A stretch of DNA of 61,509 bases, the filler included, from an uncultured Methanosarcinales archaeon (GTDB lineage: Archaea > Nanobdellota > Nanobdellia > Woesearchaeales > CAZPJY01), in NCBI GenBank assembly GCA_964587045.1. It is 5 parts of 4 records of this genome, joined end to end, with 100 filler letters (N's around TTAATTAATTAA, not from the genome) between each part and the next. Parts side by side here need not be neighbours in the genome. Positions count along the whole stretch, not along the records: positions 12,952 to 26,822 come from CAZPJY010000014.1; 4 more parts are not named here. One strand, given 5' to 3'. A program made the translations under genes and the position numbers. Shown one piece after another: positions 20,773 to 56,761 of this stretch. Each line of letters opens with the position of its first letter. Positions within the stretch are counted from its first letter, which is position 1. The notes beneath the pieces are model-generated. The model was given only the letters and a program-made list of their open reading frames with translations, was not told where the DNA came from and searched no databases.

Positions 20773-21420
20773 TTGGTAAAAACCCACCTCTCGTTCAAGG
20801 TCGCGCTCGCAGTGTTCCTGCTTGCAGCGCTCTCAATCGCCGGGGTCGGGATGTACATCGGAAGCTTATGGCACGTCAGTGACGCCCCCAACACGGTTTT
20901 CCTCACATTCGACGACGGCCCGAGCAACAACACCTTGGAGGTTCTTAGGATACTGGATGAAAATGATGCCAAGGCGACCTTCTTCGTACTGGGGGATAAC
21001 GTGCGCGAGCATGAGGATATCACGAAGCAGATAGTGCGCGAGGGCCACGCAATAGGTTCCCATTCCATGAGCCATTGCGTGCTTTGCGGCCATCCCGAGG
21101 CCAAGGAGTCAAAGGAACTGATAGAGTCGGTCACCAACACAACCGTGAAGTATTTCAGGCCTCCCAGAGGCTACATAACGCCCTCTGCGTACATCGATGC
21201 GAGAAGGGCCGAGCTGACTATTGTCATGTGGGACGTCTACCCGCGCGACTACGCCAAGGGTCCGGACTATGTCAGGTCGTACATCCTGGACAAGTCGACT
21301 TCGGGCAGCATAATAGTCTTGCATGACGGACCGGGCGACAGGTCTGGGATGCTGGGCGTGCTGCCAGATATCATCAAGGGGCTTCGTTCCAGGGGATTTG
21401 AGTTCTCAACCCTGGACTGA
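20773..21420 (+). CDS. polysaccharide deacetylase (NodB family), N-terminal anchor
   Basis: TFDDGP, HSMSH, FRPPRG, IVLHDG. Confidence 0.92.
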   Translation: MVKTHLSFKVALAVFLLAALSIAGVGMYIGSLWHVSDAPNTVFLTFDDGPSNNTLEVLRILDENDAKATFFVLGDNVREHEDITKQIVREGHAIGSHSMSHCVLCGHPEAKESKELIESVTNTTVKYFRPPRGYITPSAYIDARRAELTIVMWDVYPRDYAKGPDYVRSYILDKSTSGSIIVLHDGPGDRSGMLGVLPDIIKGLRSRGFEFSTLD

Positions 21421-22179
21421 CATCTTCTCCTTGGTCACTTCATAGTCCACTATTTGCAGGAAGTCTATCCTGTCCTTCGGCACGATTGAGTATATGCGTT
21501 CCAGGTCTTGTTGGTCATGGCCTATCAGCGTGAGGTAGAAGTTGCGTGCCGGAAGGTAATGCTGCAGTTCCTTCAAGGACTGTCCGAAGAGGTCGGAGCC
21601 GGTGTTGCGCCTGAAGTTCTGGGGGTTGGTCCCCTTCAGGCAGCCTGTCAGCAGGAAATGGTGCAGGCCCAGGAACTCCCACGGCCTCTTGTTGACGAAG
21701 TGCTCCTCGACCAAGATGACGTCTGAGAACAGCACGACTTCTCGGAGGTTGTGCCTATCTAGGGCTTGCCTCAGCTCCTTCCAGAACTCGCAGTAGATGG
21801 CAGGAGCCCCGCCCATGAAGTGGAAGACCTTCAGCTTGATGCCGAACTTGGGCTCGACCTCAGCTTTGAAGGAGATGAACCTCTCTACCAGCTCGTCAGC
21901 GCCCATGGTCAGGTCGGCCTTAAGGTTGTCGACGTAGCAGTAGGGGCACTTCAGAGGGCAGCCTGCAGCCTGGACTATGAAGTGGTTGTTGTAATCCTCC
22001 CATCTCCCGCCGAAGAGCTCTGCCATACGATAGGGCGACCTATCTCCCCTGTCATCGTGCGAGCCCCTGCCTTTGGCAACAGTGCAAATCCTCGCGACAT
22101 CATCGTGGTAGACGATACCGGATGATTTCTCTACATCGATCTGCTGCGTCTTGCCTATCTTGGCTATATCGACCTTCAC
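21406..22179 (-). CDS. radical SAM-like protein
   Basis: GCPLKCPYC (CxxxCxxC) and FMGGAP. Confidence 0.7.
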   Translation of the reverse strand: MKVDIAKIGKTQQIDVEKSSGIVYHDDVARICTVAKGRGSHDDRGDRSPYRMAELFGGRWEDYNNHFIVQAAGCPLKCPYCYVDNLKADLTMGADELVERFISFKAEVEPKFGIKLKVFHFMGGAPAIYCEFWKELRQALDRHNLREVVLFSDVILVEEHFVNKRPWEFLGLHHFLLTGCLKGTNPQNFRRNTGSDLFGQSLKELQHYLPARNFYLTLIGHDQQDLERIYSIVPKDRIDFLQIVDYEVTKEKMSVQG

Positions 22180-22619
22180 ATGGCTCCCCCGTGGTAGTCC
22201 AACCTGTAGATCTCATTGCCTTTGTAGAGGATCCTCTCAACCCCTGTGAACCTGGGGATACCACCATCTGTTTTATTGGTGTACTTGAGATTCCCTTTGG
22301 TTAACAGGCGTGGCCCTCTGAACGGGCTTTCCCTTGTAACAAGTCTCAATGCGTTCTTTAGGAAGCTGTAGACCTCTTTTGCAGGCATAGCGTCTGAGGT
22401 TATCTTCCCGAAATAGTTCATCGACCAGATTATCTTTCCGTCCTCCCAAACGGTTTCCTGGCCTGAGAACGGGTTGAACCCGTAATACTTATCTTGGTAC
22501 CTATACTTGCCCTCTTGGCATGTCAGCACCTTGCACCCGTCCGGGAGAGTTCTCTCCAGGCTTTGCTCGCTTGCGTATGTCGCGCGCTTGGCTCTGACCA
22601 GAAATTTGCTCAATCCCAT
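22176..22619 (-). CDS. DUF5680-like protein
   Basis: YQDKYYGFNPFSGQETV...WSMNYFG...PFRGP...YHGG pattern. Confidence 0.7.
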   Translation of the reverse strand: MGLSKFLVRAKRATYASEQSLERTLPDGCKVLTCQEGKYRYQDKYYGFNPFSGQETVWEDGKIIWSMNYFGKITSDAMPAKEVYSFLKNALRLVTRESPFRGPRLLTKGNLKYTNKTDGGIPRFTGVERILYKGNEIYRLDYHGGAM

Positions 22620-22675: not shown

Positions 22676-22703
22676 ATTGAGCATGATTCCTGTTATGTGT
22701 TTT
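22676..22703 (+). repeat. dif-like site 1 (degenerate left arm): ATTGAGCATGA TTCCTG TTATGTGTTTT
   Basis: Read directly; sits at the GC/AT boundary. Confidence 0.75.
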
Positions 22704-22827
22704 TTCTGAAAGAAAAAATGCTGAAGCGTAGGCACAGTATGACACAGAGAAAAAGTAGATCTTTTGATTAGAAAAATACTCCTTATGAATAGTAATGTTT
22801 ATATAACAAGTTCTAATTCCGATTTGA

Positions 22828-23382
22828 ATGGGAACACGAATGCTTACAAACCGAGAGTTAACTGATTTAATGGGTTTGAAATTAAATATAGAAATTCTTT
22901 CTGGTGACAACAAAGAGATGGTTGAAGGGTGTCTTGCTCCTGCAGAGAATGGGATTGAAGCATGTGTGTTTTATCATCATGGAAGTGAAACAAAATCAAC
23001 CCTTGCTCATGAAATAGTTGTCGCTCATTATCCAATTTACTCAAAAGAAAGATATATGGCTGTAAATAAAATATTGAAGAAGTTTGCAAAAATTGTAGAA
23101 GGAGCTAAGGAAAAAGGTGCCTATGAACCATTTGATTTTGATGCTTTAAATAAACTTCCCGCTGAAATATGTTATCCATCTCCTTCTAAAGGAGAGATTT
23201 GGCAACCTTCAATTAGATTATATAGGGGAACACCTGTGTGGGATGCAAATGGGCAGTTGAGAATGAATTTTGTTGGGACATCAACAACCAGCTATTTGTC
23301 CTTAGCTTATAAATCGCATAATAGGGGTGCAGAAGCACTAAATAATGCAGGTATAGCGACAACTACCTCTATACTTCAATAA
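22828..23382 (+). CDS. cassette A: hypothetical protein
   Basis: 184-aa ORF; TTTATATA at 22798-22805. Confidence 0.75.
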   Translation: MGTRMLTNRELTDLMGLKLNIEILSGDNKEMVEGCLAPAENGIEACVFYHHGSETKSTLAHEIVVAHYPIYSKERYMAVNKILKKFAKIVEGAKEKGAYEPFDFDALNKLPAEICYPSPSKGEIWQPSIRLYRGTPVWDANGQLRMNFVGTSTTSYLSLAYKSHNRGAEALNNAGIATTTSILQ

Positions 23383-23447
23383 CAACCACAGATCTTAGGA
23401 TTATTTTTTACCTATTAGTGTGATCTTATCACTTTTTCTGGAGTAAT

Positions 23448-23475
23448 ATTGCACATAATTCCTGTTATGTCTCCC
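23448..23475 (+). repeat. dif-like site 2: ATTGCACATAA TTCCTG TTATGTCTCCC
   Basis: Read directly. Confidence 0.85.
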
Positions 23476-23611
23476 GACGACTGAAAGGAGGAGAGCGCAG
23501 CGGGGCACAATCCGAAGGATTTTGGGTTCAGAATTCGGGTGTATTTAATATTAACTTCCAAGTAGTAAATTATTCGAAATGTTTATAAATATTAGATTAA
23601 TAACTACCAAT

Positions 23612-23980
23612 ATGAGAGAAGCAATTACCCAATTATTTCAACAAGTTGGAAAAGATTATCAAGATAGAGGAGTTGCTGAATTTGATTTACATCAAGGTCA
23701 CGATGTTCATGCATTTTATAGACTTTCAGGTTATCCATCTAAAGTAGTTCATGTTCAAGGTTATACGGGAATGAGTTCTGACAATGAAGCAAGAGTTTGG
23801 GCAAGAATGATGGATTATGACCTAATGATGAAAATAAGAGGGAGTGGAGGAGTTTCAGTAGGAAACGAACATGAAGCAACAACAGAACAATTTCCAAATT
23901 TTGAAAATGGAATAATGATTCCATATGATTCAAAAGTTCTTGAAGATAAATTGGCGGAAAACGTTCCAGAGTTGAAATAA
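23612..23980 (+). CDS. cassette B: hypothetical protein
   Basis: ORF from MREAITQ; TTTATAAA at 23582-23589. Confidence 0.75.
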   Translation: MREAITQLFQQVGKDYQDRGVAEFDLHQGHDVHAFYRLSGYPSKVVHVQGYTGMSSDNEARVWARMMDYDLMMKIRGSGGVSVGNEHEATTEQFPNFENGIMIPYDSKVLEDKLAENVPELK

Positions 23981-24017
23981 ACGCCCCGCTTCTTATAAGT
24001 GTTAAGTCTTTTTCTCA

Positions 24018-24045
24018 ATTGAAACTAATCCTTGTTATACGTTTT
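24018..24045 (+). repeat. dif-like site 3: ATTGAAACTAA TCCTTG TTATACGTTTT
   Basis: Read directly. Confidence 0.85.
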
Positions 24046-24107
24046 TTCTGCAAGAAAAAAATCACGGAGTGAAATGGAGCGACAGTATGACGCAGAGAGC
24101 TTTTCCG

Positions 24108-24605
24108 TCACTTGTTGAAAAAATTAACACATTCTGGAATTACTTTTAGAAATTTATCTGGACTATTTTTTAACTCATTAAGTAATTCTTCTTTTGAAAA
24201 CCACTTAATTTTTTCAACTTCCTCTTCTTGAATTGTAAACTCTTCGATTTTTTTATCGACTAAGGCAAAAAACCATTGAGTAAAATGTTTATGTTGTCCC
24301 TCGTGAAAATGATGAAACGACTTTTGAAATTCTTGATTCTTTAAACCAATCTCTTCTTCAGCTTCTTTAACAATATTGGATTCATAAGATTCTCCTTCAT
24401 CAATAGTTCCTGCAACCGCGGGACCCCATTGACCTGGATTATTCTTTTTATTGAATGATCTTTGTGCAAGGAGAATCTCACCTCTTGAATTTTGAATCCA
24501 TAAAGCTGAAACTCTATAAATATCTGATTGGTTTAAAGATCCTCTTTCTTTAGAACCTATAATTTCATCATTTTCATTAACAATAATTATTTTTGCCTTA
24601 GACAT
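24108..24605 (-). CDS. cassette C: NUDIX hydrolase (IDI/YfcD-like)
   Basis: LAQRSFNK..PGQW..AVAGTIDEGESY....KEAEEEIG. Confidence 0.9.
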   Translation of the reverse strand: MSKAKIIIVNENDEIIGSKERGSLNQSDIYRVSALWIQNSRGEILLAQRSFNKKNNPGQWGPAVAGTIDEGESYESNIVKEAEEEIGLKNQEFQKSFHHFHEGQHKHFTQWFFALVDKKIEEFTIQEEEVEKIKWFSKEELLNELKNSPDKFLKVIPECVNFFNK

Positions 24606-24664
24606 ATATTTTTACAATTCAAGAAGTAATATAAATTTATCGAAAGGAAAAGCTCTCGAGTAAT

Positions 24665-24692
24665 ATTGCGTATAACCGATGTTATGTCCTTT
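24665..24692 (+). repeat. dif-like site 4: ATTGCGTATAA CCGATG TTATGTCCTTT
   Basis: Read directly. Confidence 0.85.
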
Positions 24693-24794
24693 TCCCATAC
24701 GGAGTGTGGGAAAACTGCGTCCGCAGAGTCGGGAAAGGACAATTCCATCTAGCACGAAGTGCAATTAAGAAAACAATTAAAGGCAAAAACAAAA

Positions 24795-25481
24795 TTATTT
24801 ATACATGGAAACAACTTTTTCTAGAGCGGGAAGATGGTCGGGTCTAAAGTTAAGTTCTTTTCTTATATCTTTGCCAACTAAAGAACCAATAGGAACCCAT
24901 CTTTGAGATGCAATCTCATCTGAACCTCTTACATGACCTATTCTACAGACATAATATTCACACATCTCTGACTGTTTATACTTATCTTGTCCAGAATTAT
25001 CTATAACAGGAACTTTCATTATAAACTGTAGATTTTTTGGGTCAATACTTATGCCCTGTTCTTCTTGAAAACCTCTTAATACAGAGTCAAAATAACTTTC
25101 CCTAACATTTACATGTTCAGAAACACTTACATCACTCATTGAAGGAAATAAATCTTTTTTAGAAGATCTTGTTGGAACAAGTATTTCATCATTATCATTA
25201 ATAATGAATGCGTTTGCACCTCTATGATAAAATCCTTTTAACCTATCATCTCCATGACATTCTTTTCTATAGAAAACAAGGTCATTTCCTTCGACGTTAT
25301 AAGGTCTATCGTTTTGATCAAAAATTTGGAACCATTCGTATTTGCTACCTTCTACCTCCTGTTCTTTATCACCTAAGGCAGTATCATCCATAGAAGTAGC
25401 TAATACTAAGCCATTATCTTTTACAGAAAAATTAAGTGTTCTACCTGCAATATTTTCCAATTCTTTTTTTGTGATATTCAT
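24795..25481 (-). CDS. cassette D: NUDIX hydrolase (IDI-like) with N-terminal extension
   Basis: YHRGANAFI...TRSSKKDLFP...SEHV..RESY...RGFQEEQG. Confidence 0.85.
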   Translation of the reverse strand: MNITKKELENIAGRTLNFSVKDNGLVLATSMDDTALGDKEQEVEGSKYEWFQIFDQNDRPYNVEGNDLVFYRKECHGDDRLKGFYHRGANAFIINDNDEILVPTRSSKKDLFPSMSDVSVSEHVNVRESYFDSVLRGFQEEQGISIDPKNLQFIMKVPVIDNSGQDKYKQSEMCEYYVCRIGHVRGSDEIASQRWVPIGSLVGKDIRKELNFRPDHLPALEKVVSMYK

Positions 25482-25557
25482 TTATTGTTGTTACTATTTA
25501 GTAGTATATAAATATTTCGATTTTGTTTTTGCCTAACCTAGTTTTTGTCCTTTCCCG

Positions 25558-25585
25558 ATTGAAACTAATCACTGTTAGTTTCTTT
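25558..25585 (+). repeat. dif-like site 5: ATTGAAACTAA TCACTG TTAGTTTCTTT
   Basis: Read directly. Confidence 0.85.
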
Positions 25586-25740
25586 TACCCTACGAAGTGG
25601 GGTAAAATTGCGTCCGCAAAGTTGAGTTTGAGTTTTCCTTCCACGTTTTACATTCATTTTTATATCAAGGGTCGCCCTAATAAATAGTAACTAAATAGTA
25701 GTAAATAGTAAAAAAGTTTATAAACTATAGTATTTACACT

Positions 25741-26289
25741 ATGAATATGGCATTAAGTGAACACTTTTGGAATAAATTAGGAGGATATGTTAGAGCAGGA
25801 AATAGAGTTGCCGAGCTATACCATGGCGAAAAAGATGATATTCTTAGGGGATTAGCTGAAATTGTTTCAGATGAAGGAGTGGTATATGGTGTTGATCATC
25901 TAAATCCATTTGAAAGACATAATAATATGCGAGAATTGCAGAAATTATCAAATGTCAGATTATTGAAAGCATCAATTCCACCACTGCCAGCTGAAGTTTC
26001 TAATTTGGATGCTGTTTTAATCAGAGAATTTATTTGGACTTATCCTCTTCCTTATAATGGTTCTGAAAATCCACAAACATACGAAGCAATTGATACAGCT
26101 GTAAATGTTGGGGGACATTTTATTTTACATTTAAATCCTACAGAACAAGAGAATGAGAAACGAAAGCACCCAATGTATCAAGATACTATGAACCGGCAAC
26201 TTCCTCATTTTCAAAAAGTATATAATCGCGAGGATTTGATAGTCTATCAAAAAACTTCTTCTAGGACATTAAATAGGGCGACCCAATAA
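25741..26289 (+). CDS. cassette E: class I SAM-methyltransferase-like fold protein
   Basis: GNRVAELYHG...LAEIVSDEGVVYGVD...LDAVLI...VGGHFIL resembles a degenerate MTase. Confidence 0.6.
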   Translation: MNMALSEHFWNKLGGYVRAGNRVAELYHGEKDDILRGLAEIVSDEGVVYGVDHLNPFERHNNMRELQKLSNVRLLKASIPPLPAEVSNLDAVLIREFIWTYPLPYNGSENPQTYEAIDTAVNVGGHFILHLNPTEQENEKRKHPMYQDTMNRQLPHFQKVYNREDLIVYQKTSSRTLNRATQ

Positions 26290-26310
26290 ATTAGAGAAAA
26301 CTCAAACTCA

Positions 26311-26338
26311 ATTGAAACTAACCCTTGTTATGTGGGGA
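26311..26338 (+). repeat. dif-like site 6: ATTGAAACTAA CCCTTG TTATGTGGGGA
   Basis: Read directly. Confidence 0.85.
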
Positions 26339-26372
26339 GACTGCAAGTCGACCGACCGAAGGGACAGTTGAA

Positions 26373-26768
26373 CTAAGAAAATTTACTAGCATACTCAATC
26401 CAATTTTTATGATGTAAAGATAATTTATCCGCCACTTGCATTATTCTACCATAAATTGTTGTAGGTGTCTGTTTTCTTCTATGATTGAGAATACAATCTG
26501 AAATTTCTTCTTTAAAGGATTTAAATTCAGGATACTTTTGCAAAAATTTATCTAAATATTGAAGGCCTAGTTCATGATGTTTATCTTTATCATCTTTCCT
26601 TCCAATATCATGAATCCAACCTGAGATATCAAAAACAATTGGATTTAGATCAGTATTCTTAATCATATTATTACAACAATCTATTACACAAGCAGAATGA
26701 ATTTTTATTTTTTCATCATTCCATTCTTGTTCAAAAAATTCTTTTGCTTTTGAATATGCGTCACTCAT
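26373..26768 (-). CDS. cassette F: HD-domain phosphohydrolase
   Basis: H...WIHDIG...HH...H...ADKL. Confidence 0.88.
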   Translation of the reverse strand: MSDAYSKAKEFFEQEWNDEKIKIHSACVIDCCNNMIKNTDLNPIVFDISGWIHDIGRKDDKDKHHELGLQYLDKFLQKYPEFKSFKEEISDCILNHRRKQTPTTIYGRIMQVADKLSLHHKNWIEYASKFS

Positions 26769-26811
26769 AGAAATTAAATTGTATTTAAGGTATATAAATT
26801 TTCTTAGTTCA

Positions 26812-26822
26812 ATTGCACATAA
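26812..26822 (+). repeat. dif-like site 7, left arm only (ATTGCACATAA; contig ends here)
   Basis: Identical to the left arm of site 2; followed by Ns. Confidence 0.75.
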
Positions 26823-56599: not shown

Positions 56600-56761
56600 G
56601 GTAGTTGAGTGATAAGGGTATTATATAAAACTGCTGAATGAGGCCTCCTGCTTTAAGAATATGACCATATTTGTATGTATTAGTCGATACTAAAATTAGC
56701 ATAATATATGTTATAGAATACAAATTTTTATAAAGGTGAAAAATAAAGGTATGAAGTAAAG

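Follow-up and report, generated by a model that had tools for sequence, protein, structure and literature searches.

A cassette array with self-pairing ends in a Woesearchaeales archaeon, consistent with integron-like gene capture by a tyrosine recombinase without the I2 domain

Results

An array of six cassettes at the end of a contig

The DNA analysed here (the window) is a stretch of 61,509 nucleotides made of joined contig pieces from the 1.6 Mb genome of an uncultured archaeon of the order Woesearchaeales (GCA_964587045.1). The final 4.1 kb of contig C14 form an array in which six direct sites, each consisting of an arm, 6 nt and a second arm, delimit six gene cassettes (A to F), and the contig stops on the last arm. 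The two ends of a cassette paired with each other, and related arrays in other genomes were accompanied by a tyrosine recombinase. The core-site pattern matched five times in the window against 0.17 expected; site 1 reads TGA in place of TAA, and a seventh site is truncated by the contig end at 26822. GC content was 28-35% within the array compared to about 50% in the flanking DNA. A cassette consists of a 6-nt spacer and a unit with mutually pairing ends. The 5' end of the unit runs through 7-8 nt of arm (the outer arm), a hairpin insert of 13-106 nt with GNA hairpins, AGT and an inner arm, and the 3' end through the complement of the inner arm and a complete 11-nt Xer-like arm ending in TAA. 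The features are as follows, with open reading frame abbreviated as ORF.

22676..22686, plus strand: left arm of the first site, the distal border of the array, ending in TGA.
22687..23458, plus strand: cassette A (6-nt spacer 22687-22692, unit 22693-23458); outer arm paired 8/8 with the insert skipped, AGT at 22736 opposite the terminal ATT, GNA triloop at 22708.
22828..23382, plus strand: ORF of cassette A, 184 amino acids, no Pfam, NCBIfam or PADLOC match; TATA-like box 30 bp before the ATG.
23459..24028, plus strand: cassette B, probably a chimera with a B-type start, a damaged site remnant and a foreign 3' end; no anchored inner stem.
23612..23980, plus strand: ORF of cassette B, 122 amino acids from an ATG 30 bp past a TATA-like box; no family match.
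24029..24675, plus strand: cassette C; outer arm 8/8, AGT at 24084, GNA triloops at 24050 and 24066.
24108..24605, minus strand: NUDIX hydrolase gene of cassette C.
24676..25568, plus strand: cassette D; inner stem of 16 bp from AGT at 24727, outer arm just 5/8.
24795..25481, minus strand: NUDIX-domain gene of cassette D; TATA-like box 31 bp upstream.
25569..26321, plus strand: cassette E; outer arm 8/8, inner stem of 18 bp from AGT at 25620, GNA triloop at 25594.
25741..26289, plus strand: ORF of cassette E, about 180 amino acids, no family match.
26322..26822, plus strand: cassette F, whose last base is the contig end; outer arm 8/8, inner stem of 20 bp from AGT at 26366, GNA triloops at 26343 and 26358.
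26373..26768, minus strand: HD-domain gene of cassette F; TATA-like box 30 bp upstream.

Each cassette thus listed holds one small ORF, none of which encodes a recombinase, and five of the six genes have a TATA-like box 30-31 bp upstream.

The first and last arms of a cassette pair with each other

A first-pass annotation had proposed that the first core arm of each cassette is the reverse complement of its own last arm, exactly so in four of six. All six arm pairs were found in place: the 7-mer arms were exactly complementary in A, C, E and F, imperfect in B and D, and within sites exact only at site 5 (1/6), as had been described. When all 720 possible pairings were enumerated, the own-cassette pairing in the window had p=0.017. 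The comparison was then extended to arrays from other genomes and metagenomes, in which sites were called by a position weight matrix seeded from the window pattern without any complementarity term (287 sites versus 8 on reversed sequence). Four genome loci duplicating others, together with L273-L284, were excluded from these later counts (210 units, 295 spacers and so on). Among 210 distinct units, the own arms paired on average at 3.64 of 5 variable positions (79 exact), compared to 2.29 (11 exact) for the two arms within a site and 2.10 for shuffled pairings (maximum 2.40 in 5000 permutations); since units are related, the p-values for pairing overstate independence. Permutation within loci gave the same direction (133 units, 3.72 versus 2.55 shuffled, maximum 2.89), and mutual information was concentrated on the start/end diagonal (0.27-0.53), with every cell within sites at 0.09 or below.

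Cassettes B and D were the two imperfect cases. The outer arm of B pairs at 5/8, its type of 5' start has a different end in four of six other units sharing that start, and a damaged site remnant lies near 23980-24010; B looks like a chimera. Cassette D, with its 16-bp inner stem and 5/8 outer arm, is a real exception to arm pairing.

The earlier proposal that the cassette is the mobile unit gained support from the own-arm pairing and from the recurrence of cassette C among other neighbours: its counterpart in L117 is 91% identical over the full length, with an identical 5' spacer and a different 3' spacer. End pairing and cassette mobility are well supported. Arm pairing and computed joint folds likewise upheld the view that the chromosomal sites are hybrids and that an excised circle would rebuild a paired site.

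Cassette ends bear signatures that suggest a folded single strand

The inner stem was anchored in 124 of 188 units versus 0 of 300 mismatched pairs, and in 118 of the 124 AGT faces ATT. Right arms reading AAT at positions 9-11 were present at only 9 of 295 sites, and the hairpin insert was never shorter than 13 nt. Folding would thus restore one 11-bp arm that is absent to the right of the double-stranded array site.

The ends showed a strand bias. Outer-arm mismatches read on the plus strand were G·T in 46 cases and A·C in 12, and GNA triloops numbered 163 versus 13 for the opposite strand, the control from cassette interiors giving 19 versus 16. The GNA triloop is a DNA-specific stabilising motif. 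Together, the G·T bias and the triloops indicate that the plus strand likely folds as single-stranded DNA (ssDNA). RNA folding as the cause of the hairpins was rejected, because the loops are GNA triloops rather than GNRA tetraloops (the latter scarce, 25/730) and because the genes face both ways (108 versus 71 among the 210 units). In 134 of 156 cases the computed circle joint had a more stable fold than the hybrid site (-24.3 versus -15.8 kcal/mol), and in the window type of site (type I) the joint closes, by computation, on a 4-nt loop. Local folding of chromosomal hybrid sites was no better than that of shuffles at three of four sites tested, site 5 being the exception.

Median cassette length was about 670 bp. 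Short units without an ORF of 70 amino acids made up 23 of 210, and gene-less type I units of 80-185 bp with the full end structure were common (L039, L046, L049, L124, L317).

Spacers follow the downstream cassette

We compared the spacers of sites with similar starts or similar ends. Spacers resembled those of sites in other loci with a similar downstream start (2.39 of 4 positions identical versus 1.80 shuffled, reached in 0 of 1000 shuffles; 2.64 once a pattern-selected family was removed), and no linkage to the upstream end was seen (1.71/4, p=0.85). Since the spacer follows the downstream cassette start and not the upstream end, the junction is placed at TAA|Y, which reads R|TTA on the minus strand. 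The plus-strand TG|TTA crossover suggested by the first-pass annotation was therefore not borne out; its analogy with the G|TT crossover of integrons failed for the plus strand and held for the minus strand. In integrons, the crossover lies between the first and second base of R' on the bottom strand (PMC12901181). The invariant TG may serve a second, bottom-strand exchange during excision. Among 295 array spacers, the conserved bases were T (241) and C (185) at positions 1-2 and T (281) and G (280) at positions 5-6; the first base was T in 241 and C in 42.

A second type I array of the same genome (G000 C3:54119-56345, partly L016 and L332) holds gene cassettes of three kinds, one of which is repeated in tandem, along with two gene-less hairpin units of 28 nt; an attI-like site closes the array, with no recombinase behind it. 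The two tandem copies are joined through the 5' spacer that belongs to the cassette, and L201, 99.9% identical, has a single copy. This joint is the predicted one, be the duplication genuine or produced in assembly from circle reads. A search for empty sites in 21 relatives returned matches to cassette starts only.

A recombinase without I2 and an attI-like site adjoin many related arrays

Just beyond the last site of many arrays lies a gene for a tyrosine recombinase like the C37 enzyme of the window genome, which is encoded at L002:167-1015; the gene is transcribed away from the array. The last site itself, 90-330 bp upstream of the recombinase, is attI-like and has two uninterrupted arms. 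Its spacer begins with C in 27 of 33 cases and mostly lacks the terminal TG, whereas 280 of 295 array spacers end in G. With loci chosen by protein alone (all 80 protein-selected loci being retained for this count), an attI-like site was found upstream of 21 of 46 clade A enzymes and 0 of 21 array-less clade C enzymes (p=1e-4); the opposite-strand control gave 2 of 46 for clade A. The clades come from a quick tree that was midpoint-rooted, without bacterial outgroups and with ORFs below 150 amino acids dropped. Three attI-like sites were found in the window genome: one 133 bp upstream of the C37 enzyme, one on the last part of C19, ahead of a truncated recombinase copy, and one closing the C3 array. 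The arrangement of attI beside the integrase with the array behind occurs in relatives and at C37; the window array itself runs off the contig.

The catalytic R, K, HxxR, H and Y columns were invariant across 10 enzymes. Alignment to IntI4 broke at query positions 177-206 versus 177-250, about 29 residues where IntI4 has about 73, and the enzyme lacks the I2 insertion, so that the I2-domain test for integrons fails. TIGR02249 scores were 146-215 bits, below the cut-off of 265 in 5/5 proteins, and the cut-off of NF040815 (XerA) was passed by one of the five scanned. The best structural match was IntI4 (2a3v: Z 22.4, rmsd 5.5, 259 aligned of 313), the sequence match to 5hxy had an E-value of 1.6e-35, and the likeness to IntI4 and to XerA was about equal. 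The fold matches included the trimeric Cre-lox structure 1f44, a demonstration that this family can form three-armed complexes; their natural use is our suggestion. The closest relatives of the recombinase were mostly titled Woesearchaeota or Nanoarchaeia, on which basis the host was read as a DPANN archaeon; some records carry the title Methanosarcinales.

The window genome has three PF00589 matches, none in clade C; the C24 protein belongs to clade B, and dif was not identified with certainty. At C19, the final 250 bp of the minus strand hold the attI-like site followed by the truncated clade A recombinase, and the upstream cassette end is common with the start of C37. In L071, two short ORFs separate attI from the recombinase.

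Two site types track two recombinase clades

In many metagenome loci, a gene-less hairpin and an 8-nt spacer precede the same kind of cassette start (type II sites). The 8-nt and 6-nt spacers paired 6/6 in 28 of 46 cases with two bases looped out, which rebuilds a two-armed attC-like structure, the second arm carrying the insert on the cleavable strand. Type II occurred in 38 of 251 genomes of the phylum. The pairs L181/L232 and L042/L206 each had one unit that stands in a type I context in one locus and a type II context in the other, and contig ends from three sequencing runs had type II ends ahead of window cassette starts. Clade A was associated with 26 type I arrays and 1 type II, clade B with 0 and 9 (p=1e-7); L079 is the sole clade A enzyme adjoining a type II site. 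Because clade A tracks type I and clade B type II, type I is not simply a decayed form, and its circle would, on the model, present one arm and a 4-nt loop.

The strict site pattern matched 57 of 301 genomes of the order (a tally that takes in G207 and G111), the reversed control giving one match each in 11 genomes. Viral contigs gave 0 matches for one site pattern; a second pattern gave two near-identical single matches, which had no array or integrase within 4 kb and were taken as chance. On a Fulvitalea plasmid (Bacteroidota; L325:9800-18795), a co-oriented gene array with two-armed attC-like repeats has an apparently related recombinase ahead of it; the repeats and own-end pairing were judged by eye, and one cassette is present twice. 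The recombinase/array family may thus reach beyond archaea. Related recombinases on a Clostridium estertheticum plasmid (L326:4822-11008) are paired with IS91-family transposases, and no array was evident from the annotation.

Other features of the window genome

Radical SAM-like and DUF5680 genes with host-like GC occupy 21406-22619, immediately upstream of site 1. This stretch, for which a 5' site was looked for and not found, could be an old cassette. PADLOC gave a single match, of NUDIX type (PDC-S07), in cassette C, which was rejected as evidence of defence. An Rfam scan gave nothing near the gathering score, and a search for contig-end overlaps that would extend the window array found none. 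Isolated sites near contig ends (G000 C28:689, minus strand, and the start of C11) point to further unassembled array pieces. A near-palindromic TAA-6-TTA site close to a contig end (window ~56694-56721, C22:29772-29799) is a candidate dif, or a candidate attI of the clade B enzyme whose start is cut on C24. L003:1426-2022 (G000 C10) is a short ORF resembling a tyrosine recombinase, with catalytic motifs that look degenerate; a gene labelled archaellin-like by eye lies nearby. Overlapping TAA-6-TTA palindromes clustered upstream of a gene at G000 C10:39120-39190 are probably operator sites.

Discussion

Proposed capture through a folded single strand

We consider it reasonably probable that these arrays are an integron-like gene-capture system, run through ssDNA circles by an IntI/XerA-like tyrosine recombinase of clade A that lacks I2; the ssDNA route itself is likely. 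In the proposed sequence of events, the plus strand of an excised cassette would form a single-stranded circle, whose folding would restore one 11-bp binding arm capped by the 4-nt loop. The enzyme would cut 3' of TAA on the plus strand, both in the fold and in double-stranded attI, and swap a single strand, upon which the C of attI could pair with the invariant G of the cassette spacer, as at the integron crossover. Replication would resolve the junction, and new cassettes would therefore come to adjoin the enzyme. Internal sites are expected to be poor targets, as the insert interrupts the right arm in double-stranded arrays, and excision probably begins at intact double-stranded left arms. 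Compared to this proposal, the earlier interpretation was supported on the mobile unit, the hybrid sites and the circle and was not supported on TG|TTA. It had missed the hairpin insert and inner stem, the signs of ssDNA, and the recombinase together with the attI-like site beside it.

Several results weigh against it. No anchored inner stem was present in 64 of 188 units, inner-stem mismatches showed no strand bias (45 versus 38), and the gap in folding energy between the strands was small (-24.3 versus -23.0), though consistent (123/156). Exact outer arms were limited to the 79 of 210 units. The linkage of the spacer to the downstream cassette is incomplete: in eight pairs of similar units, two same-locus duplicates having been set aside, the 5' spacer was common to four and the 3' spacer to one, and spacers were more alike within a locus (2.21 versus 1.74). 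No circle joint was seen in three sequencing runs, where contigs only were available at a depth of about 2-3 on the strain, so that the absence proves nothing. By the strict rule, 25 of 46 clade A enzymes have no attI, and as the window array ends at a contig break, we infer its connection to C37. No natural precedent was found for a one-armed substrate.

Some of the same evidence could be explained if cassettes moved as double-stranded circles by two strand exchanges with a heteroduplex spacer, in the manner of Tn916 or Xer, the folds serving otherwise, for example in protecting ssDNA in transit. The conserved spacer positions 1-2 and 5-6 (T 241, C 185, T 281, G 280 of 295) would make both edges homologous, spacers from one genome resemble each other more, and the enzyme lacks I2. 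However, such a route leaves unexplained the covariation of own arms, the strand-biased G·T pairs and GNA loops, and an AGT that completes an arm only upon folding, and the terminal TG is mostly absent from attI spacers. We regard it as unlikely as a full account, while it may describe the excision half. Slightly less probable again is that type I cassettes are not substrates alone and that the working site is always two-armed, so that type I would be relics minus the L-hairpin, or a neighbour's stem would act as the second arm (movement in pairs or with a gene-less unit). Type II sites do rebuild a two-armed fold, with spacers pairing 6/6 in 28/46; L181/L232 and L042/L206 show single units in either context, a small number of loci are mixed, and gene-less units are common (the 23 of 210 above). 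Yet a separate enzyme clade goes with type I arrays (26:1 versus 0:9, p=1e-7), and these arrays have no L-units, even next to attI; tandem duplication and a change of both neighbours are seen for single units, and adjacent type I spacers are both pyrimidine-rich, making pairing unlikely by inspection.

The dif site has the layout 11-6-11, and the Xer-like arms and 6-nt spacer recall it; inverted ends are moreover present on every unit. The units could accordingly be miniature inverted-repeat or insertion-sequence-like elements with terminal inverted repeats and a transposase, or host dif modules moved by the housekeeping XerA. Equal flanking 6-mers were present in only one (A) of five window cassettes with both flanks known, so target duplication is not general. 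All sites are direct, the arrays are polar towards a dedicated recombinase, and no such sites were found at array-less clade C enzymes (0/21). This explanation is largely refuted, and we give it very little chance.

Returning to capture of single-stranded circles by clade A, we tentatively put forward a bolder form of it, which is possible though not probable. Clade A would recombine a one-armed ssDNA hairpin with double-stranded attI via a three-armed (Y-junction) synapse, a natural half-site reaction, and excision from folded ssDNA could resemble hairpin-telomere resolution. Together with two-armed type II and the Bacteroidota array, these would be living pre-I2 stages of the integron, in which DNA inserts instead of a protein helix block the second strand exchange.

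Comparison with known systems

The closest likeness is to integrons, including those of archaea (PMC9668308). In both, the recombinase adjoins an attI-like site with the array behind it, the first and last core of a cassette pair within its own circle, and one folded strand would be cut at AA^Y, the crossover having a C:G pair; the R|TTA-type geometry is the same here, as spacer linkage and the attI C suggest. IntI has I2, whereas the enzyme here lacks it and scores below the integron-integrase cut-off. The attC site has an L''/L' box, an unpaired spacer and extrahelical bases; type I has neither an L box nor a variable terminal structure, and here a 6-nt spacer is combined with an R stem prolonged by an inner stem with a hairpin insert. 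A two-armed attC analogue exists only in type II. Integron cassettes are mostly promoterless and co-oriented, while here genes face both orientations (108 versus 71) and have their own TATA-like boxes. The system works like an integron yet is not filed as one, because the I2-domain and L-box tests and the promoterless rule fail.

In Ghaly et al. 2022 (PMC9668308), archaeal IntIs are defined by the I2 domain and attCs are reported from Nanoarchaeota; these may include type II sites, some of which could stand as attC in the data files of that study. The I2 helix is held necessary for cassette capture and to confer ssDNA recombination (PMC7790495). CTXphi is a case in which a Xer enzyme without I2 recombines folded ssDNA (PMC4792948, PMC9226527). 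Like the arrays here, CTXphi and other integrative mobile elements exploiting Xer (IMEX) that use XerCD have a folded ssDNA site, an I2-less Xer-type enzyme, one exchange resolved by replication, and tandem arrays. IMEX hijack the host XerCD at dif with a stem that mimics double-stranded DNA; the cassettes here are small and non-autonomous, carry an extrahelical insert, and have an apparently dedicated enzyme clade and probably a target other than dif. Strand-biased circularizing integrative elements (SE) share imperfect inverted ends and the carriage of a spacer from one flank, as their 6-base spacer from one particular flank is carried into a one-strand circle joint (PMC10214605). They are autonomous elements of 7-14 kb with four core genes, and the passages at hand describe no folded site, whereas the cassettes here, about 670 bp long at the median, encode no recombinase. 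Archaeal XerA/dif (NF040815; PDB 5hxy, 4a8e) shares the 11-6-11 geometry and has an enzyme of similar size and sequence; the array-less clade C is the better XerA candidate, and clade A is found at polar arrays of hybrid sites. No description of this cassette design was found in searches of Creative Commons-licensed PMC papers and bioRxiv.

The sequences point to a folded site and an enzyme that are both simpler than in known integrons. Cassette capture in these arrays appears to proceed by way of folded ssDNA and an enzyme that has no I2 helix. There are two designs of site, each following its own enzyme clade, and the origin of integrons thereby becomes testable with small proteins and oligonucleotides. 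Matches to one strict pattern in 57 of 301 genomes of the order suggest that DPANN archaea commonly have such a platform for gene exchange, which screens based on the IntI domain would overlook, and a structure-specific site below 100 nt could serve as an engineering tool.

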